Source: Crocinitomicaceae bacterium
GTDB lineage: Bacteria > Bacteroidota > Bacteroidia > Flavobacteriales_D > Crocinitomicaceae
Length of the DNA stretch: 64,000 nucleotides
Reading direction: 5' to 3'
NCBI GenBank assembly: GCA_041688525.1
Contig: JBDNIA010000124.1
Span: 8,380 to 72,379 of the forward strand
In this document: one piece after another, positions 23,008 through 34,151 of the stretch
How positions within the stretch are numbered: the first letter of the stretch is position 1
Layout of the letters: every line of letters begins with the position of its first letter
Notes under the pieces: generated by a model
Told to the model about the DNA's origin: nothing
Databases searched by the model: none
The model's input: the letters and a program-made list of their open reading frames with translations, nothing else
Position numbers and translations under genes: made by a program

Positions 23008-24018
23008 TTGTTTAAAAAAGCAGCAGTCTTTACAGACATACACTTTGGATTAAAGGGTAATTCAAAGATTCACAATCAAGATTGTGAAGATTTTGTTGAT
23101 TGGTTCATCAAAACTGCAAAAGCCAACGGTTGTGAAACTGGTATCTTTTGCGGCGACTGGCATCACAATCGAAATTCATTAAATCTTACTACTATGGATG
23201 CAACTATCCGTAGTATGGAGAAGCTAGGTGCTGCTTTTGAGCAGTTTTTCTTCTTTGATGGTAATCATGACCTGTATTACAAAGACAAGCGCACTGTTAA
23301 TTCAACTGCGTTTGCTAAACACATTCCAGGTATTACATTTGTTGACGAAATTACCACCATAGACGATGTAACTATTGTTCCTTGGCTAGTAGGCGACGAG
23401 TGGAAAAAGCTAAAACATCTAAAAAGCAAGTATATATTTGGTCACTTTGAACTTCCTACGTTTTTTATGAACGCAATGGTACAAATGCCCGATCATGGTG
23501 AGCTACGTGCAGAAGATTTTGTTAATCAAAAGTATGTTTTTAGCGGACACTTCCACAAACGTCAACAACAAGGTGCAGTGCATTACATTGGTAATGCATT
23601 TCCGCACAACTATGCTGATACATGGGACGATGACCGTGGTATGATGGTACTCGATCGTGAAAACGATAAGGAACCACAGTACATTAACTGGCCAGAGTGT
23701 CCAAAGTATCGTACAGTTAAACTTAGCAAACTTATTGACGAGCAAACTACGTTTATTAAGCCCAATATGTACTTGCGTGTCAACTTGGACTTGCCTATCA
23801 GCTATGAAGAAGCAAGTTTCATTAAGGAAACATTCATTACTCAATACAACTGTCGTGAAATTAGTTTGATTCCACAAAAGTCACTAGAAGATATTAGTAC
23901 TCAATTAGACATTGCACAGTTTGAAAGTGTAGATCAAATTGTTGCTGGCGAAATCGCTGCAATTGACTCAGATAACTTCAACAAAAAAACACTTATGGAC
24001 ATTTATAGCGAATTATGA
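23008..24018 (+). CDS. gp47: Recombination endonuclease subunit, T4 gp47 (Mre11/SbcD-type metallophosphoesterase)
   Basis: Phosphoesterase motifs appear in order: FTDIHFG, CGDWHH, DGNHDLYYK, FGHFE, SGHFH. TTG start with GGAG 9 nt upstream. ATGA overlap with the gp46-like gene. Confidence 0.9.
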   Translation: MFKKAAVFTDIHFGLKGNSKIHNQDCEDFVDWFIKTAKANGCETGIFCGDWHHNRNSLNLTTMDATIRSMEKLGAAFEQFFFFDGNHDLYYKDKRTVNSTAFAKHIPGITFVDEITTIDDVTIVPWLVGDEWKKLKHLKSKYIFGHFELPTFFMNAMVQMPDHGELRAEDFVNQKYVFSGHFHKRQQQGAVHYIGNAFPHNYADTWDDDRGMMVLDRENDKEPQYINWPECPKYRTVKLSKLIDEQTTFIKPNMYLRVNLDLPISYEEASFIKETFITQYNCREISLIPQKSLEDISTQLDIAQFESVDQIVAGEIAAIDSDNFNKKTLMDIYSEL

Positions 24019-25787
24019 TAAAAATTAAGGATTTGACTGTGAAGAATTTTATGAGCGTGGGCAATCAGACCCAAGCTGTAAACTTTAATCGCGAGCAATT
24101 AACACTTGTGCTAGGTGAAAACTTAGATCAAGGCGGAGATGATAGTGGAAATCGTAATGGTACAGGTAAAACCACCATTATCAATGCATTATCATATGCA
24201 TTATACGGACAAGCACTCACTAATATTAAACGTAACAATCTAATCAACAAGACAAACTCAAAGGGCATGTTAGTTACACTGCATTTTGAAAAGAACGGTG
24301 TTGATTATCGTGTCGAGCGTGGTAGATCACCTAATGTACTCAAGTTCTTTGTCGACGAGCAAGAACAAGAGATGACAGATGAGTCACAAGGCGACAGTCG
24401 AAAGACTCAAGAGTATATTAACGACTTGTTAGATATGTCGCATGACATGTTTAAGCACATTGTTGCACTTAACACCTACACTGAGCCTTTCTTAAGCATG
24501 CGTGTTAATGATCAACGTGCTATCATTGAGCAGTTGCTGGGTATTACTATCCTTAGTGAAAAGGCCGAAGCTCTTAAAGAACAAACTCGTCAAACTAAAG
24601 ATGCTATTACAAACGAAACACTAAAAATTAATGCTATTCAAGGTGCAAACGAAAAAATACAAACTACTATTGATAGCTTAGGTCGTACTCAACGTGCTTG
24701 GCTTGCTAAAAAGGAGCAAGACTGTGCTAAATTACAGCATGGTATTACAGAACTAGAGCACGTAGACATCGATGCTGAACTAGAAGCACATGAAAAATTG
24801 TCTAATTGGACTCAACACAATACTGCTATTTTGGCTCTTAATAAAGAGAAAAGCACATTAGAGACTGCACAGTTACGTGCAAAGGCTAGTGTTGAAAAGG
24901 TTGAAAAAGACATCTTAAATCTTGAAGATGCTACCTGTTACACTTGTAATCAGCTGCTGCATGCAGACAAGAAACAAGAAATTCTTGACAAAAAGATGAA
25001 AGAGTTACAGGATGCAGACACCTATCATTTAGAAATTAGCAAAAAGCTAACTGCTGTGCTTAAAGATCTTAGTGACATTGGTGATATCAACGGAAAGCCT
25101 AATACGTTCTATGAAAGTGCTAAAGAAGCATATGAGCATCGTAAAAACGTTGACAGTTTGAAACAGTCGCTTGATACAAAACAAAATGAAAACGATCCTT
25201 ATCAAGCACAGATTGATGAATTGTTGTCAACAGCTATGCAAGAAATTGATTGGTCTCCTGTAAACGATCTTACTACATTCAAAGAGCATCAAGAGTTCTT
25301 GCTAAAGCTACTTACAAATAAAGACAGCTTCATTCGTAAAAAGATTATTGATCAAAACCTAGCGTATTTGAACAATAGGCTTACATATTATCTCGACAAG
25401 CTAGGATTGCCACATCAAGTTGTGTTCCAGAATGATTTGAATGTTGAAATTACTCAACTAGGACAAGATCTAGACTTTGATAACTTGAGTCGTGGCGAAC
25501 GCAACAGACTTATCTTAGGTATGAGCTTTGCATTCCGCGATGTTTGGGAAAGCCTATATCAAAAGATCAACTTGTTGTTTATTGATGAGCTGATTGATAG
25601 CGGTATGGATACTGCTGGTGTTGAAAGTTCATTGAGCGTTCTCAAGAAAATGGGCCGTGAAGGTGATAAGAATGTATTTCTTATCTCACACAAAGACGAA
25701 TTAATTGGAAGAGTAAGTTATGTTATGCGTGTTGTAAAAGAAAATGGCTTTACAAGCTACGAAAACGATATTGACATTGTAGAATGA
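24015..25787 (+). CDS. gp46: Recombination endonuclease ATPase subunit, T4 gp46 (Rad50/SbcC-type)
   Basis: N-terminus IKIKDLTVKNFMSVGNQ...LVLGEN...NGTGKTTIINALSYALYG (Walker A). Long central coiled coil with a CxxC hook (ATCYTCNQ). C-terminal LSRGERNRLILG...LLFIDELIDSGMD (signature / Walker B). Confidence 0.9.
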   Translation: MIKIKDLTVKNFMSVGNQTQAVNFNREQLTLVLGENLDQGGDDSGNRNGTGKTTIINALSYALYGQALTNIKRNNLINKTNSKGMLVTLHFEKNGVDYRVERGRSPNVLKFFVDEQEQEMTDESQGDSRKTQEYINDLLDMSHDMFKHIVALNTYTEPFLSMRVNDQRAIIEQLLGITILSEKAEALKEQTRQTKDAITNETLKINAIQGANEKIQTTIDSLGRTQRAWLAKKEQDCAKLQHGITELEHVDIDAELEAHEKLSNWTQHNTAILALNKEKSTLETAQLRAKASVEKVEKDILNLEDATCYTCNQLLHADKKQEILDKKMKELQDADTYHLEISKKLTAVLKDLSDIGDINGKPNTFYESAKEAYEHRKNVDSLKQSLDTKQNENDPYQAQIDELLSTAMQEIDWSPVNDLTTFKEHQEFLLKLLTNKDSFIRKKIIDQNLAYLNNRLTYYLDKLGLPHQVVFQNDLNVEITQLGQDLDFDNLSRGERNRLILGMSFAFRDVWESLYQKINLLFIDELIDSGMDTAGVESSLSVLKKMGREGDKNVFLISHKDELIGRVSYVMRVVKENGFTSYENDIDIVE

Positions 25788-25996
25788 TTAACGACGACAT
25801 ACACGATCAGTTAACTAAGGCTTACTTAGAGTACTTTAAGGCAAACGAGAATTTTGAGTCTCGTTTGTCTCATCGAACACATCTAGCAAGTAGAAAATGG
25901 TTGCGTGAGATTAGAAGGTTAGCAAAATTAAGGCAAGAAGAAATACATATAGCTTATGCAGCCAAGAAGGCGGCTGAGAAGCAAAAGGCAAAATAA
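25784..25996 (+). CDS. Hypothetical small basic helical protein
   Basis: 70-aa ORF with ATGA coupling to the gp46 stop. Lys/Arg-rich helix (SRKWLREIRRLAKLRQEEIHIAYAAKKAAEKQKAK). No family recognised. Confidence 0.5.
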   Translation: MINDDIHDQLTKAYLEYFKANENFESRLSHRTHLASRKWLREIRRLAKLRQEEIHIAYAAKKAAEKQKAK

Positions 25997-26429
25997 GTAT
26001 GTTATGCATTGGACTTATCAAGGTAAACAACTAGACGAACTTCCGGAAGGATGTGAAGCATTTGTATACTTGATAACAAATCTATCCAATAGCATGATGT
26101 ATGTAGGCAAGAAACTAGCAAAGTTTAAAGTAACTAAACCCCCGCTTAAAGGCAAGAAGAATAAAAGACGTAGCACCAAGGAAAGTGATTGGAGAGAATA
26201 TTATGGCTCCAGTGATAGACTTAACGCAGACGTTTTAGAGTTAGGCGCAGAAAATTTCACACGTGAAATATTACATTTTTGTCCCAGCAGAGGCATAGCA
26301 AGTTACTTAGAGGCCCGTGAACAGTTTGAACGTAGAGTACTCGAAACAGATGAATACTACAATGGTATTATCAATGTTAGAGTTGGCGGATCAACCATTC
26401 TCAAAGAACATCTTAAAAAAAATTCCTAA
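25956..26429 (+). CDS. GIY-YIG-type homing-endonuclease-like protein (free-standing)
   Basis: FVYLITNLSNSMMYVGKK is a GIY...YIG-like pair. ...FTREILHFCPS...YLEAREQF resembles the distal catalytic Glu region of I-TevI/Seg proteins. The track start at 25956 overlaps the previous ORF by 41 nt. The in-frame ATG at 26004 (MHWTYQG...) just after that ORF's stop is the more likely start. Confidence 0.65.
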   Translation: MQPRRRLRSKRQNKYVMHWTYQGKQLDELPEGCEAFVYLITNLSNSMMYVGKKLAKFKVTKPPLKGKKNKRRSTKESDWREYYGSSDRLNADVLELGAENFTREILHFCPSRGIASYLEAREQFERRVLETDEYYNGIINVRVGGSTILKEHLKKNS

Positions 26430-27028: not shown

Positions 27029-27895
27029 ATGAAAGTACATCACATATTAGCAGAAGTAGATTATGCAGTAGTCAGAGCAGGATCTGGTCGGAATAGAGTA
27101 TTTAATATAATAGATCCTACAACTGGTGCTGTTGTTGGTAAAGAACGTATTCGTGGACAAGCAGATGCAAAAGCAAAAAACTTAACTGCAAAATCAAATG
27201 TAGCTGCTCCTAAACCAAGTAATACTCCGGCGCTACCAGTTACTACTCAGCCTGAGGCACCTAAGTCTGTCAGCAAAGTTAAAAAAGCAGTTAAACAAAT
27301 AGTTAAATCGCCTGGCAAAACTATGTATAACTTATTTTTATCATCACCGGTAGGAAGAGTAATAGGAGCACTAATTTCTTTTGAACAACTATCGACTGAC
27401 TTAGACGCATATGCAAATGTGTATGCAGCAAACAAATGTAATATTAATGCTCCGGAATTAAATGCTGCTCAACTTATAATAACTGATAATATTGCTGGCG
27501 GCTTAGTTAGTTTCTTAACAGTTGGCGCATCAACCGCAGCTTCGTTAGCAATGCTAACAAGATTCTTTACTGTTGTTCCTGGCTTTGGCTGGGTCCTATC
27601 AATTATTGGCGGCGCAAGTGGTATAGCTATATCATATCTATTAGGTAAACTTGCTAGAGATACTGGAATTATTAAAGGAATTAGTGATTTTATTGCAAAC
27701 ACCATGTTGAGCAAGGAAACATTATCTAGTCTAAGTTTCCCGCAATGTGATGGTGCAACTGAATCAATTGACGAAGCTATTGAATTTAGATTACAAGAAT
27801 CTGTTTCACAAATTAAAGCTGCCTCAAAAGATATGGTAATGAACGATCCAAAATTACTTGCTATGCTCAAAGCTGCTAAAGTAACGGCATCCTAG
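27029..27895 (+). CDS. Membrane protein of unknown function
   Basis: 288-aa ORF. Two hydrophobic spans are present (GGLVSFLTVGASTAASLAMLTRFF; VVPGFGWVLSIIGGASGIAISYLLG). They follow a Pro/Lys-rich linker (APKPSNTPALPVTTQPEAPKSVSKVKK). Confidence 0.6.
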   Translation: MKVHHILAEVDYAVVRAGSGRNRVFNIIDPTTGAVVGKERIRGQADAKAKNLTAKSNVAAPKPSNTPALPVTTQPEAPKSVSKVKKAVKQIVKSPGKTMYNLFLSSPVGRVIGALISFEQLSTDLDAYANVYAANKCNINAPELNAAQLIITDNIAGGLVSFLTVGASTAASLAMLTRFFTVVPGFGWVLSIIGGASGIAISYLLGKLARDTGIIKGISDFIANTMLSKETLSSLSFPQCDGATESIDEAIEFRLQESVSQIKAASKDMVMNDPKLLAMLKAAKVTAS

Positions 27896-28142
27896 TATCA
27901 TTTGTAGCTTGAATGTTTTCTTTGATGATCCTGTTTAGGATCTCTCTATCTTCATTAGAAATCCTAAACATTAGATCTTCGTAACTAAAACTTCCTCTCA
28001 TATACCAACCAAGCCGATAAGCATCGTCTTTTATTTGTTTGATATCATTTTCAAAATCTTTAGCTAGTGCTAAAATCTGAGATTCCTCGAGAGGGATGAG
28101 CGTGGCGCGAAAAAACTTGAATAGTCCAAGTCCAGTCTTGTC
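27876..28142 (-). CDS. ATG-less -1-frame ORF (88 codons): candidate frameshift extension of the gp26-like gene
   Basis: Hand translation gives DKTGLGLFKFFRATLIPLEESQILALAKDFENDIKQIKDDAYRLGWYMRGSFSYEDLMFRISNEDREILNRIIKENIQATNDTRMPLL*. The frame opens 9 codons before the heptamer T_TTT_TTC (28115-28109, minus strand). Five stops close it in the 19 codons just upstream. Confidence 0.5.
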   Translation of the reverse strand, partial: DKTGLGLFKFFRATLIPLEESQILALAKDFENDIKQIKDDAYRLGWYMRGSFSYEDLMFRISNEDREILNRIIKENIQATNDTRMPLL

Positions 28143-28933: not shown

Positions 28934-28944
28934 ATTATTCCTTA

Positions 28945-28979
28945 CATAAATACATAGTAATACTTGTAATGTATTTATG
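28945..28979. promoter_or_regulatory. Divergent pair of late-promoter-like motifs in an 11-nt inverted repeat (CATAAATACAT ... ATGTATTTATG)
   Basis: Plus-strand CATAAATA at 28945-28952 faces the 29006 gene. Minus-strand CATAAATA at 28979-28972 faces the 28933 gene. The arms 28945-28955 and 28969-28979 are exact reverse complements. Confidence 0.45.
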
Positions 28980-29005
28980 GGTATGATAACCTTAAGGAAA
29001 CTAAA

Positions 29006-31129
29006 TTGGCTGAACCATTAACTGAAGAAGGATTAACAAGAGCACTAGCTCAATTTGTTAAAAAATCCAGCGGAAGCAGTAATAGTGGCCCGAGTAACTC
29101 TTTTGATGTTACTGGGCCTTTAAGCGCCTTTAAGAATTCACTTAATAAAGCAGGTGGATCATTAACTGACTTTTCAAAAGGTATTACATCATCTACTAAA
29201 GGACTTGGAATACTAGGTAAAGCATTAGTCGGAGTTACGGCTATTATTGGATATCTCGAAGACACCCAATCTGAATTTAATAGTTTAAGTAAAGTTGGCG
29301 CAGGCCTAAATGGAAACTTATCAGATCTAAGAGTAAGTGCTGCAAGAACTCGCTTACCGTTAGATAAATTTTCAAAACTGATTTCTAACAATGTCACAGA
29401 GTTAGCAGGCTTTGCTGGAGGAGTTGAAGGCGGCACACGAAAAGTTGCAGCATTAGGTAAAGAATTATTTGCGACTCGAGAAAACGGCACACAGTTGATT
29501 GACGGATTTATGAATCTTGGATATACTATTGAAGAAGCTAACGAATTCGTAGTTAAAAATACATCATTGATGCGTCGTAGGCAGCTTGTAGAAGGTCTAA
29601 CTGATGCTCAATCAGTACAAGCAGCTCAAGAGCTTGCTAAACAAATGGACATTGTTTCTAAGCTGACAGGCAAAGACGCTAAATCACAAATGGATGATAT
29701 GACAGCACGGATGCGTAACGGTTCAACTGATTCTAAACTTCGTCTATTAGAAAAACAAGGTATTACTACTGCACGGGCCGCATATGAAAAATCAACAGCA
29801 GCATTACAACAATCGCCTGCTGTAGTAAGAGATTTGTTAGCAGACCTTGTACAAACCGGAGTACCAATGACAGCAGCTACTAAGAGCTTTATGGCATTGA
29901 ATAGTGAGGCAGGTGCACTCTTAACGAAAGCAGCTAATGCAACTAAAGCAGGTGATGTTGAAGGTGCTCAAAGATATGCTGAAGAGGCAGCGCGAGCGAC
30001 TGTTAAAAGTGCAGACTCAGTACAGAATTTAACAATTGGAACTTACGGACAGATAAGTGAAATTGCACAAGGTCAAGCAAATGTATTGCAAGAAGTTGCT
30101 CCAATAATTGATGCTGTTGCAGCACATACTAAAAAAATGGAATTAGAACTTGGACGCACTGTATCATTTACTGAATCATTTAACAACATGTTAGGCGGCA
30201 TAATTACATCACAAGGAAATCAGGTAGCAGGTAAAGGAGCCGGCCAAGAAGCATTAGTTGCACTCAATGAAGCCCAACAAGCACTAGCTAATGTTGCAAG
30301 TGCAACTAATGAAGCAATTGCAAAAGAATTAAACAACAGTTTAGTTGTAGGCGCATTAAATGAATTATCTGAACAAATGAAAAAATTTACTCCGGAAGGT
30401 ATTGCAGCTACAGTTCTTACTATTTCTTCAATATTGCCCGGAGCAAGCAATGCTGAACTTGCCAGGGAAGCAGTAACTGTGGGCGCGGTCAGTAAAGAAG
30501 ATTCAGCACTAATTGACGAACTAGCGAATCCTACAACACTTCAAGCAAGAAGAAATGAGATTGAGGCTGATCTACAATCTAGAGATATTTTAAATGCTGA
30601 CGGAAGTCTTAATGTAATAATTATTAAAAATCTTTCTGACAGCCGTCGCGAAACTGCTGAAAAAAATCCTATAGCACCAGAATATGAAGGATCGTCGCAA
30701 AGATTCTTTAAAAGAATCTTTGGAGGAGAACCAGCAGCTGGTTCTCCAGGAGAACCAGCTGCAAGAAAATACGGCGGCCCGATGAAAGCAAATAAGCCAT
30801 ATAAAATTAATGAAGGTAACGAAACAGAACACTTTGTTCCTGGAATGGACGGCTCAATGATTCCAAACATAAAAAATATAACAAGTAGACTTCCGGCAGC
30901 AATGAACGAACTTCAGAAAGATATGGCGCAGTTTGGAGCACCAAGGTCACAATCTGCACAATCAGCAATGGGCGGTGGTGGCGGTGAAATTGAACAATTA
31001 CTACAAACCACTAACGATCTTTTATTAGCTGTGTTAGGGGTAAATACTGCACAAGCACGTACAGGCGAAAAGCATTTAAGAAGTGCTAGGGGCGCTGGCA
31101 ATTTAATGAACGGATTCGGTAGAGCATGA
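29006..31129 (+). CDS. Tail tape-measure-like protein (T4 gp29 role)
   Basis: 707 aa, TTG start with AAGGAA upstream. It is a long Ala/Gln/Glu/Lys-rich, predicted helical protein with Gly-rich ends (MGGGGGEIEQLL). It sits next to the hub gene. The assignment rests on composition and context, not on a motif. Confidence 0.55.
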   Translation: MAEPLTEEGLTRALAQFVKKSSGSSNSGPSNSFDVTGPLSAFKNSLNKAGGSLTDFSKGITSSTKGLGILGKALVGVTAIIGYLEDTQSEFNSLSKVGAGLNGNLSDLRVSAARTRLPLDKFSKLISNNVTELAGFAGGVEGGTRKVAALGKELFATRENGTQLIDGFMNLGYTIEEANEFVVKNTSLMRRRQLVEGLTDAQSVQAAQELAKQMDIVSKLTGKDAKSQMDDMTARMRNGSTDSKLRLLEKQGITTARAAYEKSTAALQQSPAVVRDLLADLVQTGVPMTAATKSFMALNSEAGALLTKAANATKAGDVEGAQRYAEEAARATVKSADSVQNLTIGTYGQISEIAQGQANVLQEVAPIIDAVAAHTKKMELELGRTVSFTESFNNMLGGIITSQGNQVAGKGAGQEALVALNEAQQALANVASATNEAIAKELNNSLVVGALNELSEQMKKFTPEGIAATVLTISSILPGASNAELAREAVTVGAVSKEDSALIDELANPTTLQARRNEIEADLQSRDILNADGSLNVIIIKNLSDSRRETAEKNPIAPEYEGSSQRFFKRIFGGEPAAGSPGEPAARKYGGPMKANKPYKINEGNETEHFVPGMDGSMIPNIKNITSRLPAAMNELQKDMAQFGAPRSQSAQSAMGGGGGEIEQLLQTTNDLLLAVLGVNTAQARTGEKHLRSARGAGNLMNGFGRA

Positions 31130-31142
31130 GGATAGCAGCATA

Positions 31143-34100
31143 ATGTCGTGGAAAAAATATTTTACTCCGGTACAAACTGGGGATAACCCAAACGGAAGTT
31201 ACAGCCCAATAAGTGGTGCTAACTCTGCTGGACGTCCTGGACCTGCAAAATCAAACTACAGTTCATATCTTCCTGATGTGTATGTTGGTAGTCCAAACAG
31301 AGTTGAACGTTACGGTCAATACAACACTATGGATATGGACAGTGAAGTTAACGCTGCACTAGATATCCTTGCTGAGTTTTGCACACAAAAGAATAAAACC
31401 AACGGTACTAATTTTAAATTTGCATTTAATAAAAGTGCAACCAACAATGAAATTAATATTTTAGGTCAGTACCTAAAACAGTGGTGCAAACTAAATCAAT
31501 TTGAAACTAGAATGTTTAGAACATTCCGTAACATATTTAAATACGGCGATGCAATATTTCTAAGAGATCCAGAAACTAAAAAACTTTATCATGTTGACCC
31601 CGCAAAACTAACACGAATTATTGTTAACGAAAGCGAAGGTAAAGTTCCTGAACAATACATTGTTAAAGACATAAACTTAAACTTTACTGAGATGGTTGCA
31701 ACAACACCGTTTATCACTAATGGTAATATCACAGGTGGTGGCGGAGGAGGATATACTACTGGTGGCGTTCGAGGTATGGTAGGTAATGCTCCTACACAAA
31801 ACGGATCACGATTTAATACTACCAACGGTGAAGTTGCAATTGATGCCGAACATGTGTTGCATCTTAGTTTAAGTGAAGGCTTAGACAACAATTACCCATT
31901 TGGAAACAGTTTATTAGAAACTATTTTTAAAGTATTCAAACAAAAAGAATTACTCGAAGATGCTATTATTATCTATCGTGTACAACGTGCTCCGGAACGC
32001 CGAGTATTTTATGTGGACGTAGGCAACATGCCAAGTCACCTTGCTATGCAGTTTGTTGAGCGTGTTAAAACTGAGATTCATCAAAGACGTATTCCAAGTG
32101 CTACAGGCGGTGGCACTAATGTTATTGACTCAAGCTATAATCCTCTCTGTTTGGATTTATCTACAAGGATTCCTCTACTTGATGGAAGAACATTAGCACT
32201 AACTGAGTTAATTGCAGAGTTTAAGCAAGGAAAAGAAAACTGGGCATACAGTTGTGATCCTGTGACTGGCAAAATAGCGCCAGGGGTAATTAACTGGGCT
32301 GGTATTACTCGTAGAAATACACAAACTATTCAATTAACATTTGATAATGGCGAAACTTTAGTTTGTACTCCAGACCACAAGATACCAGTATTTGGAAAAG
32401 GTATGGTAGAGGCCAAGGACATTGTCGAAACTGATAGTCTAATATCTTTTAATAAAAGAAACAAAAAGATATCGTCTAAATCTAATGACTATGAGCAAGT
32501 TTGGGATCATAGCAAGAAGGAATGGCAGTGGACTCATCGAGTTGTAGGCGAGTTTTTTAGAAACTTGAGCAAACATCAGGAATTTACATACCTTGAACAA
32601 AATGCAGGAAAGTCTAAAGCAGTAATACATCATCGAGATTATAATCGCTTTAATAACGATCCACGTAATCTTCAATATATGAATAAAGCTGATCACATAC
32701 AGTACCATGCTGCAAATAAATCAGATTACTGGTCTAATTTATCAGAAGAAGAATTCCAGTTAGTTACGGGAAAAATTTCTAATACGTTAAAAACACATTG
32801 GAAGAATATGACTATTGTAGAAAGACAATCAGCTCTTTACAATATTAGGTCAGCACAACAGAGAGCAGTGTGGATGAGACAGAATGATCCTGCGACTACG
32901 GTCAGTTATAAAAAGAACGCTGGCAAATCTAGAAGTGACCACCTTAATAGTAATCTAGCTGCGATGCAACAAGTGGTAAAAAACTTGGAATCTAGAGTTA
33001 AAATAAAAAATCAATCGTTACATTTGACATTTGAAATGTTACAGATAGTAGTGGAGATAGTTAAGACTCAGTCAACAAATAAGAACACTGTAATTAATCT
33101 TTGTGACAATAACAAAGAGTTATTAGATCTGTTAAAGAAAGAAAATTCAGTTGCTCTTGATTATAAGAACGCTCAGTGTAAGATTGACTTTACGCGATTT
33201 GGTTATAGTAAACTAAATGGACTTCTTAAGAAAAACGGATACACTAACTGGAAACAGTTTGTAAAAGAAATCGATCAGTTTAACCACAAAGTAGTAAAAA
33301 TAGAAGTAGTGTCTAATCGAGATACAGGAACTATTACTATAGACGGCACTGAAAAATGGCACAACTATCACACGTTTGCTATTGAAAGTGGTATCTTTGT
33401 TAAAAATTCAATAAATGAAGATTACTTCTTTCCGCAGACAGCAGAAGGTCGCGGATCTAAAGTTGAAACACTTCCGGGTGGTACTAACCTAGGTGAAATT
33501 GATGACCTTAGATATTTTACCAATAAGCTAGTACGTGGATTGCGTATTCCAAGTTCTTACTTACCAACTGGAGCAGATGATTCATCTAGCAGTTATAATG
33601 ACGGTCGTGTCGGAACAGCATACATTCAAGAACTACGCTTTAATACTTACTGCGAACGGTTGCAAGGCTTAATTGTAGAAGAATTTAATCAAGAGTTTAA
33701 ACGTTACTTGTTAGAAAAAGGCGTAAACATTGATACTGCAATGTTTGATCTAGAGTTTGAAACACCACAAAACTTTGCAAGCTATCGTCAAGCAGAACTT
33801 GATAATGCTCGTGTACCAACATATACACAAATGAGTGCTATACCATATGTTTCAAATCGCTTTGCTATGAAACGCTTCTTAGGTATGAGCGAAGAAGAGA
33901 TTGCAGAAAACGAGCGTCTATGGAAAGAAGAAAACGACGAAACTATCAATACCGGTGGTGAAGACGCAAGTTCAGAAATGCGTACAGCAGGTATTAGCAG
34001 TGCAGGTATTAGTGCAGATATTGATGGTGCAGAAGATATTGCGCCAGAAGGCGGCGAACCAGAAATAGGCGCAGAAGCAACTCCTCCAGACACAGCAACG

Positions 34101-34151
34101 GGCGCAGCACCAGGAGCTGCTGCTCCAGGCGCAACAGCACAAACGATATAA
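31143..34151 (+). CDS. gp20: Portal vertex protein (T4 gp20 family) interrupted by an intein
   Basis: LEDAIIIYRVQRAPERRVFYVDVGNMPSHLAMQFVERVK and INEDYFFPQTAEGRGSKVETLPGG are gp20-type portal motifs, from memory. 1002 aa, of which 420 aa form an intein. Confidence 0.88.
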   Translation: MSWKKYFTPVQTGDNPNGSYSPISGANSAGRPGPAKSNYSSYLPDVYVGSPNRVERYGQYNTMDMDSEVNAALDILAEFCTQKNKTNGTNFKFAFNKSATNNEINILGQYLKQWCKLNQFETRMFRTFRNIFKYGDAIFLRDPETKKLYHVDPAKLTRIIVNESEGKVPEQYIVKDINLNFTEMVATTPFITNGNITGGGGGGYTTGGVRGMVGNAPTQNGSRFNTTNGEVAIDAEHVLHLSLSEGLDNNYPFGNSLLETIFKVFKQKELLEDAIIIYRVQRAPERRVFYVDVGNMPSHLAMQFVERVKTEIHQRRIPSATGGGTNVIDSSYNPLCLDLSTRIPLLDGRTLALTELIAEFKQGKENWAYSCDPVTGKIAPGVINWAGITRRNTQTIQLTFDNGETLVCTPDHKIPVFGKGMVEAKDIVETDSLISFNKRNKKISSKSNDYEQVWDHSKKEWQWTHRVVGEFFRNLSKHQEFTYLEQNAGKSKAVIHHRDYNRFNNDPRNLQYMNKADHIQYHAANKSDYWSNLSEEEFQLVTGKISNTLKTHWKNMTIVERQSALYNIRSAQQRAVWMRQNDPATTVSYKKNAGKSRSDHLNSNLAAMQQVVKNLESRVKIKNQSLHLTFEMLQIVVEIVKTQSTNKNTVINLCDNNKELLDLLKKENSVALDYKNAQCKIDFTRFGYSKLNGLLKKNGYTNWKQFVKEIDQFNHKVVKIEVVSNRDTGTITIDGTEKWHNYHTFAIESGIFVKNSINEDYFFPQTAEGRGSKVETLPGGTNLGEIDDLRYFTNKLVRGLRIPSSYLPTGADDSSSSYNDGRVGTAYIQELRFNTYCERLQGLIVEEFNQEFKRYLLEKGVNIDTAMFDLEFETPQNFASYRQAELDNARVPTYTQMSAIPYVSNRFAMKRFLGMSEEEIAENERLWKEENDETINTGGEDASSEMRTAGISSAGISADIDGAEDIAPEGGEPEIGAEATPPDTATGAAPGAAAPGATAQTI
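32148..33407 (+). mobile_element. Intein (420 aa) with an HNH homing-endonuclease domain inside the portal gene
   Basis: It starts at Cys (TGT 32148-32150): CLDLSTRIPLLDGRTLALTELI (block A). Block B TxxH is in LVCTPDHKIPV. The HNH motif is HHRDYNRFNNDPRNLQYMNKADHIQYH. It ends ...WHNYHTFAIESGIFVKN (Asn codon 33405-33407), followed by the +1 extein Ser. Confidence 0.85.

Follow-up and report, generated by a model that had tools for sequence, protein, structure and literature searches.

A 64,000-nucleotide (nt) stretch of DNA from a Crocinitomicaceae bacterium assembly (GCA_041688525.1, contig JBDNIA010000124.1, positions 8,380 to 72,379 of the forward strand; hereafter the window) carries on its minus strand a giant-phage gene of the T4 gp26 baseplate-hub family that closes with the slippery heptamer T_TTT_TTC. 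We propose, with a probability of about 0.85, that this gp26-like gene gives rise to a 287-amino-acid (aa) short form and a 352-aa long form through programmed −1 ribosomal frameshifting at the heptamer. A preliminary description, made from the letters of the window, had put forward the same two products, and comparison with related sequences strongly supports it. We regard the recoding site as real and widely conserved, and as an apparently undescribed addition of a new protein family to phage tail-assembly frameshifts: nowhere does the full-text literature searched, with subscription-only papers outside its scope, report a frameshift for gp26 or for a gene of the baseplate hub.

The final codons of the gp26-like open reading frame (ORF) read GAC TAT TCA AGT TTT TTC GCG CCA ... 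TTT TAG, with the zero-frame codons AGT TTT TTC at 28117-28109 on the minus strand and the zero-frame TAG at 28072-28070, 12 codons past the heptamer. The −1 frame contains five stops shortly before it opens at 28142 and then remains open for 88 codons, 11 ahead of the re-read C and 77 beyond it, to a TAG at 27878-27876. Entry into this extension corresponds to reading the C at 28109 twice. The earliest ATG, GTG or TTG in the −1 frame is an ATG at 28001, which is codon 48 of the frame and codon 36 of the extension, and if the −1 ORF is discounted a gap of 174 nt separates the gene from the convergent ORF at 27029-27895. On checking against the sequence, the coordinates first given for the heptamer, the stops, the opening at 28142, the 88 codons, the ATG at codon 48 and the 174-nt gap all proved correct. 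The parts of the gene are as follows.

28933-28070, minus strand: short form, 287-aa ORF in the zero frame; hub assembly protein of the T4 gp26 family by Pfam, PHROG and an AlphaFold2 (AF2) model
28115-28109, minus strand: slippery heptamer T_TTT_TTC, in phase as AG-T TTT TTC; read in the sequence and conserved in relatives
28109-27876, minus strand: −1 frame extension of 77 codons (RATLIPLEES...WYMRGS...TRMPLL) plus TAG; homologous −1 ORFs in relatives
28933-27876, minus strand: long form, predicted trans-frame product of 352 aa; gapless alignment with single-ORF relatives
28108-28070, minus strand: zero-frame tail past the heptamer, 12 codons (APRSSLSRNLRF) plus TAG; read in the sequence
28615-28157, minus strand: span holding C107-x2-C110 and C254-x4-C259; cysteines invariant in alignment A1 and nearly so in alignment A2

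In the proposed mechanism, most ribosomes would pass TTT TTC and terminate 12 codons on to release the 287-aa short form, and some would slip back one base on U_UUU_UUC, with both tRNA-Phe re-pairing with UUU. The slipped ribosomes would then read 77 codons in the −1 frame to complete the 352-aa long form (...LDLDYSSFF-RATLIPLEES...), which would gain a three-helix C-terminal domain; the efficiency of the slip would probably be low. Predicted trans-frame tryptic peptides are LDLDYSSFFR across the junction followed by ATLIPLEESQILALAK, and the peptide predicted to be specific to the zero frame is LDLDYSSFFAPR.

Chance is an unlikely explanation for this arrangement, as it provides the sole long −1 run among the heptamers of the window. 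In window ORFs of 150 aa or more, 72 X_XXY_YYZ heptamers stand in phase, and the gp26-like site alone has a long −1 frame, defined as one that continues for at least 30 codons beyond the zero-frame stop. Open −1 runs in the window, which has a G+C content of 37%, show a median of 4 codons and a 95th percentile of 23, and runs of at least 77 codons begin at 0.36% of sampled positions.

Conservation of the heptamer and the −1 extension

A tblastn search with the predicted 352-aa fusion as query returned matches confined to jumbo phages, with those of Atu_ph07 and Phosso split into two pieces. We read 14 phage records in three frames (13 from cultured isolates, the other being the uncultured 595-kb assembly LR756511) and compared 27 IMG/VR metagenomic viral loci with 34–100% amino-acid identity, for a total of 41 loci. 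Every one of these 41 loci harbors an in-phase T_TTT_TTC or T_TTT_TTT. All 27 IMG/VR loci have TTTTTTC in the same phase followed by a 77-codon −1 ORF, and xxT TTT TTC closes the gp26-like gene in 11 of the 14 records (Atu_ph07, Sinorhizobium phage Phosso, GAP32, CBB, PA5oct, RaK2, Serratia phage BF, Xanthomonas phage XbC2, Vibrio phage 2.275.O, 121Q and the uncultured LR756511). The site is T_TTT_TTT in Xoo-sp13 and Stenotrophomonas phage RAS14, and a T9 run in Ralstonia phage RsoM2USA (GTT TTT TTT TCC; locus L042, around 2267-2276). The codon ahead of the heptamer ends in T throughout and encodes N, S, D, H, R, A, Y, V or G, and the base following the heptamer is G except in PA5oct, Xoo-sp13 and RAS14, so that CGN, encoding arginine, opens the extension in nearly all of them. 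The zero-frame tail of relatives extends 1–12 codons and is not conserved in its own right, and a stop in the −1 frame lies 4–18 codons ahead of their site.

Downstream of the site, a −1 ORF of 55–81 codons is present in all 14 records and aligns with the window extension. Across 20 unique loci, column entropies of the −1 frame are 0.92, 0.57 and 1.33 at codon positions 1, 2 and 3, with third positions varying most, and closely related pairs yield ratios of nonsynonymous to synonymous substitution (dN/dS) of 0.04–0.31 in the −1 ORF. Judged by these substitution patterns, the −1 ORF is coding sequence under purifying selection. The preliminary description had named conservation of the heptamer and selection on the −1 ORF as signs to look for in relatives, and both were borne out in every relative examined. 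Conservation of the extension begins at the very first −1 codon (R-x-x-L/I...) and reaches its hydrophobic C-terminal tail (MPLL, LPIL, MPFF), and the first possible start codon lies 3–36 codons into the extension in 19 of the 20 unique loci.

Existing gene predictions capture the two parts of the gene separately. Among 5.8 billion predicted proteins we identified 467 relatives of the body, the best 120 of which are all 258–293 aa and end at the zero-frame stop; the extension occurs in the same set as nine fragments only, of 48–94 aa, and was not found as part of any larger protein. The extension domain has no match in Pfam or NCBIfam. The recoding event is absent from metagenome gene calls and from the annotation of all 14 GenBank/RefSeq records, none of which joins the two frames. 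The next coding sequence (CDS) downstream is a 'hypothetical protein' in seven records (Phosso, GAP32, CBB, BF, XbC2, 121Q and Vibrio 2.275.O), and the records of Atu_ph07, Xoo-sp13 and RAS14 also place a small hypothetical CDS at the extension; it is unannotated in RaK2, PA5oct and RsoM2USA, and the LR756511 record is without any annotation.

Some relatives encode the long form in a single frame, which argues that it is a real protein. Among 1.84 billion representatives, phmmer run exhaustively recovered 1,040 relatives, and about 18 of the best 150 consist of a single ORF that carries the body through residue ~351 (319–351 aa, 26–33% identity). The junction aligns without a gap, pairing ...LDLDYSSF|FRATLIPLEES of the window with ...LDLDYCNN|FRNQILMMPES of the single-ORF relatives, and residues C107, C110, C254, C259, D270, F275, W310, M312, R313 and G314 are invariant in the long form. 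We read the DNA of single-ORF relatives for two cases, loci L047 and L048, where the junction of the in-frame long gene is GAA GAA TTT AAA or GAA GAA TTC AAA and encodes one F without a slippery run. Both loci (L047 1959-3790, L048 2180-4011) contain tandem gp26 paralogs, a short gene (276 and 274 aa, respectively) followed by a long gene (334 and 336 aa) with an ATGA overlap, and the short paralogs, which belong to PF12322, terminate just past the position equivalent to FF. A third case, P0280 on a 192.6-kb contig, shares the portal / 737-aa / divergent layout, and there a 334-aa gene precedes the long form. From these sequences, some lineages encode a short and a long form as two genes, and the window lineage would obtain both from one gene and a frameshift. 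Separate genes for the two forms are the strongest argument against the short form being a mere by-product of the slip. As a side observation, the short and long paralogs of L047 and L048 share 22–25% identity, and the short paralog of L047 retains AAT TTT TTA, after which the −1 frame closes immediately.

Flanking signals and alternative explanations

Several points weigh against programmed ribosomal frameshifting. The case for the frameshift itself is comparative and drawn from sequence, and the roles suggested below for the short and long forms are taken from analogy. The preliminary description had pointed to the RNA downstream of the heptamer as a place to look for a fold, and RNAalifold analysis of 20 gapless marine-clade and 7 RaK2-like sequences gave no consensus structure in either clade. 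Folds of single downstream sequences produced hairpins in differing registers with a mean z of only about −1.1, and strong stems, situated ~18 nt past the heptamer, were confined to Atu_ph07 (−17 kcal/mol) and Phosso (−19 kcal/mol). In these same two phages an ATG overlaps the zero-frame TGA (ATGA), and the extension might also be made separately there. Finally, the site is a homopolymer, and a T6 run could in principle support slippage by RNA polymerase.

The stem-loops of Atu_ph07 and Phosso (loci L001 and L002) occupy the same place, about 18–50 nt past the heptamer, with unrelated sequence, and could act as a clade-specific stimulator or coupling signal. An invariant TCTGA at +27 to +31 encodes Ser-Asp/Glu in the −1 frame, and its pairing partner differs by locus. 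Upstream of the site, TGGA is the candidate Shine-Dalgarno-like element; it is conserved in the marine clade only, with GATCC or AACCC, coding D/N-P, in its place elsewhere, and is therefore unlikely to be a general feature. In many loci the zero-frame stop lies 1–4 codons past the site, and a stop codon close behind a slip site can aid frameshifting.

The alternative that survives best is transcriptional slippage, in which RNA polymerase would add one U within U6 to create an mRNA subpopulation with the extension in frame, leading to the same proteins. Besides the homopolymeric site itself, this explanation can draw on the longer runs of three relatives (T7 in Xoo-sp13 and RAS14, T9 in RsoM2USA) and on the RNAalifold result, which revealed no conserved ribosome-stalling structure in the two clades; given the length of the RsoM2USA run, slippage during transcription could play a part in that phage. 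Bacterial RNA-polymerase slippage usually needs about nine U, however, and six is short. Although polymerase slippage would be favored by a longer T run, 38 of the 41 loci have C as the seventh base, and a textbook X_XXY_YYZ tandem-slip site stands in phase in every locus; as the FF residues are conserved, the phase would be fixed under a ribosomal or a transcriptional model. Because the run is short and its seventh base is C in those 38 loci, we infer that the slip is ribosomal and consider polymerase slippage improbable.

Less probable still is translation of the −1 ORF as a small gene in its own right, through separate initiation or through termination-reinitiation coupled to the gp26 stop, the assumption made in the GenBank annotation of Phosso, GAP32, CBB, BF, XbC2, 121Q and Vibrio 2.275.O. 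The ATGA overlap in Atu_ph07 and Phosso is compatible with such coupling, and several records annotate a small CDS at the extension. In the window, however, the extension lacks an ATG, GTG or TTG over its first 36 codons, which are conserved and selected, and on this ground we rejected an independent gene for the window clade; the starts annotated in GAP32 and CBB likewise remove conserved residues. An independent gene also leaves aside that relatives fuse both parts in one frame with a gapless junction and that the extension was found within no other protein, and under this explanation the invariant in-phase heptamer would be needless.

A T6-for-T7 sequencing or assembly error, or a recent pseudogene, so that the true gene is a single 352-codon ORF or is decaying, can be set aside as having almost no chance of being correct: homopolymers are error-prone and in-frame relatives exist, but the same frame arrangement recurs in 41 of 41 loci including 13 cultured-isolate genomes, the −1 ORF is under purifying selection with no decay, the in-frame relatives differ at the junction (one F, no T run), and the miscall of the complementary A6 for A7 that the preliminary description had raised is ruled out because three independent metagenome assemblies match the window exactly through the site, T6 included, and the 287-aa sequence, possible only with T6, occurs unchanged on 54 contigs from NCBI, JGI, ENA and Logan.

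The gp26 family and known frameshifting systems

The gp26-like gene belongs to the T4 gp26 / PF12322 family by profile, fold and motifs. The 287-aa product matches PF12322 (T4_baseplate; cut-off 24.5 bits) with a score of 39.4 bits and an E of 6.7e-10, and phrog_150 'baseplate hub' with an E of 5.7e-10, and PF12322 is the precomputed assignment of every listed homologue. AF2 run on the single sequence gave a predicted local distance difference test score (pLDDT) of 35, and we used instead a run on alignment A2, which comprises 107 sequences and yielded a model with mean pLDDT 88.7 and a predicted template modeling score (pTM) of 0.73. Comparison of this model to BFVD identified T4-like baseplate hub assembly protein, hub subunit and gp26 models of many myoviruses with E down to 2e-19, including those of CP220, AF3, ACP17, phiA8-29, VH7D and SP-15. 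A Foldseek search of the same model against the Protein Data Bank (PDB) gave no match, with a best E of 0.8 and no tail-assembly chaperone among the hits. Residues 1–277 of the model form an alpha/beta body with pLDDT >90, residues 278–282 right after the junction are disordered (pLDDT <50), and the extension is modeled as three helices (284–313, 318–324 and 327–347; pLDDT 73–83), with a conserved WYMRG(G/S) motif at the close of the first helix. The four cysteines of the body may form a split zinc ribbon.

T4 gp26 resembles the window protein in its PF12322 match, its cysteine pairs, a C-terminal FF at the equivalent position and a gene that, as in the window, is divergent from hub genes. T4 gene 26 (locus L010 3803-4429, minus strand) encodes 208 aa with the motifs WKCTCG...KCPECG...KEFFELL*, in which CxC...CxxC stands ahead of the C-terminal FF, and ends ...KCPECGKTHAHVIRGLKEFFELL*, three codons beyond the point that corresponds to the slip. 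It differs from the window gene in its length and in having neither heptamer nor extension: gene 25 starts at once, and a profile of the extension has no match across the 12 kb of the T4 hub region. Only the short form is thus present in T4, and the preliminary description was right that no such recoding is part of the classical T4 map; among T4-like phages outside the jumbo clade, T4 alone was compared. Two nested products also arise from T4 gene 26, in that case through an internal start, the T4 record annotating an internal-start product 26' of 95 aa. In addition, the T4 gene 25 start lies in the −1 frame and overlaps the gene 26 stop. T4 gp26 is listed as a hub assembly chaperone in the tail review of Leiman et al. 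2010 (PMC3004832), a role in hub assembly that is known for T4 only, and the composition of the T4 hub was contradictory between groups, with other studies placing gp26 inside the hub (PMC3004832).

The arrangement at the gp26-like gene can be set beside the tail assembly chaperone frameshifts of lambda G/GT and P2 E/E+E'. In both, ribosomes that slip by −1 close to the 3' end make a minor product with a C-terminal extension alongside the major, short one, and the P2 heptamer is a T-run. These frameshifts were reportedly described by Xu, Hendrix and Duda in 2004 and by Christie et al. in 2002. The gp26-like gene shares with them a heptamer near its 3' end, a proposed −1 slip, a predicted short and extended product and a place among tail morphogenesis genes; it further shares the T-run heptamer with P2, and with these systems in general the position beside a large virion protein that is possibly the tape measure and the retention of the frameshift across very divergent sequences. 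In contrast to G, the gp26-like gene is divergent from its large neighbor and does not lie between tube and tape-measure genes on one strand, and its body is ~275 aa with a Cys4 site compared to roughly 100–140 aa in G-like proteins. A tail-assembly-chaperone family match for the gp26-like protein was found in none of Pfam, PHROG and NCBIfam, and we rejected a tail-assembly-chaperone fold because the model has no PDB match. Some gp26-like relatives also differ from G/GT in having two paralogous genes in place of a frameshift, a replacement that to our knowledge has no known example for G/GT. The link between the gp26 family and G/GT drawn in the preliminary description is thus one of logic and not of homology, since fold and gene position differ.

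E. coli dnaX provides a third comparison. There, a Shine-Dalgarno-like element upstream of the slip site and a hairpin downstream of it stimulate the frameshift. The tau/gamma products of dnaX share with the gp26-like case, as proposed here, a homopolymeric heptamer, a −1 slip and two products with a common N-terminal body in one assembly; in dnaX, however, the frameshift product is the shorter one, and strong stimulators flank the slip site where none is evident at the gp26-like site.

By analogy with these systems, both gp26-like forms may be needed in unequal amounts while the baseplate hub or the tail initiation complex is put together, with the common body performing the gp26 chaperone job and the extension offering a second contact, following the logic of lambda G/GT. 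The G/GT chaperones bind the tape measure through the short part and the tube protein through the extension, and they do not occur in virions. In the list of CBB virion proteins identified by mass spectrometry, as far as it is shown, the gp26-like protein is absent and its 722-aa neighbor present, a weak hint that the gp26-like protein may likewise be missing from virions. A broader and distinctly speculative idea, which we think more likely wrong than right, is that in T4-type and jumbo myoviruses the gp26 family takes the functional place of the G/GT chaperone, a counterpart long missing there: both forms would be essential at a set ratio, the body would hold the tape-measure or hub complex and the extension would recruit the next component, tube or hub, and evolution would have moved between three solutions, namely the frameshift, two paralogs and the internal start of T4. 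The proposed production of two proteins from one gene, together with the paralog replacement, leads to a hypothesis that can be tested in cultivable phages: initiation of the hub or tail would depend on two forms of gp26 at a set ratio. For recoding research, the site offers a clean natural test set of dozens of divergent sequences around U_UUU_UUC with no obvious stimulator.

Neighboring genes

Two features adjoin the gp26-like gene on its 5' side.

28934-29005, both strands: divergent intergenic region of 72 nt that separates the gp26-like and 707-aa genes; read in the sequence
29006-31129, plus strand: gene for a 707-aa protein, adjoining the portal gene; candidate tape measure, not confirmed; layout shared with relatives

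The pairing of a gp26-like gene with a divergent large ORF recurs in 26 of 27 relatives checked, the exception being Atu_ph07, and the large ORF of relatives encodes 720–980 aa and starts 35–94 nt from the gp26-like gene. The 707-aa gene is followed by the portal gene, in the same order as in relatives. The CBB homologue of the 707-aa protein is an abundant virion protein (29 peptides, 50% coverage), the PA5oct homologue is flagged by mass spectrometry, and the RaK2 annotation of its homologue notes similarity to an Enterococcus phage tape measure. Searches with the 707-aa protein found nothing similar in T4 gp29, Pfam or NCBIfam, nor among PDB sequences by single-sequence and profile search. 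The preliminary description had placed the gp26-like gene beside the tape-measure gene; the large neighbor stands, and its identity as a tape measure, which could not be confirmed, is plausible but unproven.

The neighbor also varies in length between close relatives. In locus L012 (IMGVR_UViG_3300007722_000381), where the gp26-like gene is 100% identical and the contig is otherwise near-identical, the neighbor is 793 aa compared to 707 aa, and the surplus consists of additional copies of a ~17-aa tandem repeat (EGSSPIRETAGDNPIAPEY-like). Such variation in repeat number would fit a length-determining protein. In Atu_ph07, gp701 (locus L046 9510-10127) is labeled 'tail length tape measure protein' and is only 205 aa, which makes it uninformative here; the label is probably wrong because 205 aa seems short for the tail of a jumbo myovirus.

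The intergenic region at 28934-29005 holds an inverted pair, CATAAATAC and GTATTTATG, that puts ATAAATA on either strand, ahead of both the gp26-like and the 707-aa gene. These motifs appear to resemble the core of the T4 late-promoter consensus, TATAAATA. On the other side of the gp26-like gene, the convergent 288-aa ORF at 27029-27895 (plus strand), which has no family match, shares 20 nt (27876-27895) with the end of the −1 extension.

Farther out, a T4 gp20-like portal gene of 1002 aa lies at 31143-34151 (plus strand); Portal_T4 matches two stretches of it, with an intein carrying an HNH endonuclease in between, for which the Intein_splicing and HNH_3 matches are both under the Pfam cut-offs. 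By sequence reading, ORFs of 336 and 590 aa (23008-25787, plus strand) resemble the gp47/gp46 recombination nuclease pair, and a gp47/gp46 pair is also found near the gp26-like gene in related phages. A 157-aa ORF at 25956-26429, likewise by sequence reading, looks like a GIY-YIG homing endonuclease and is a putative insertion.

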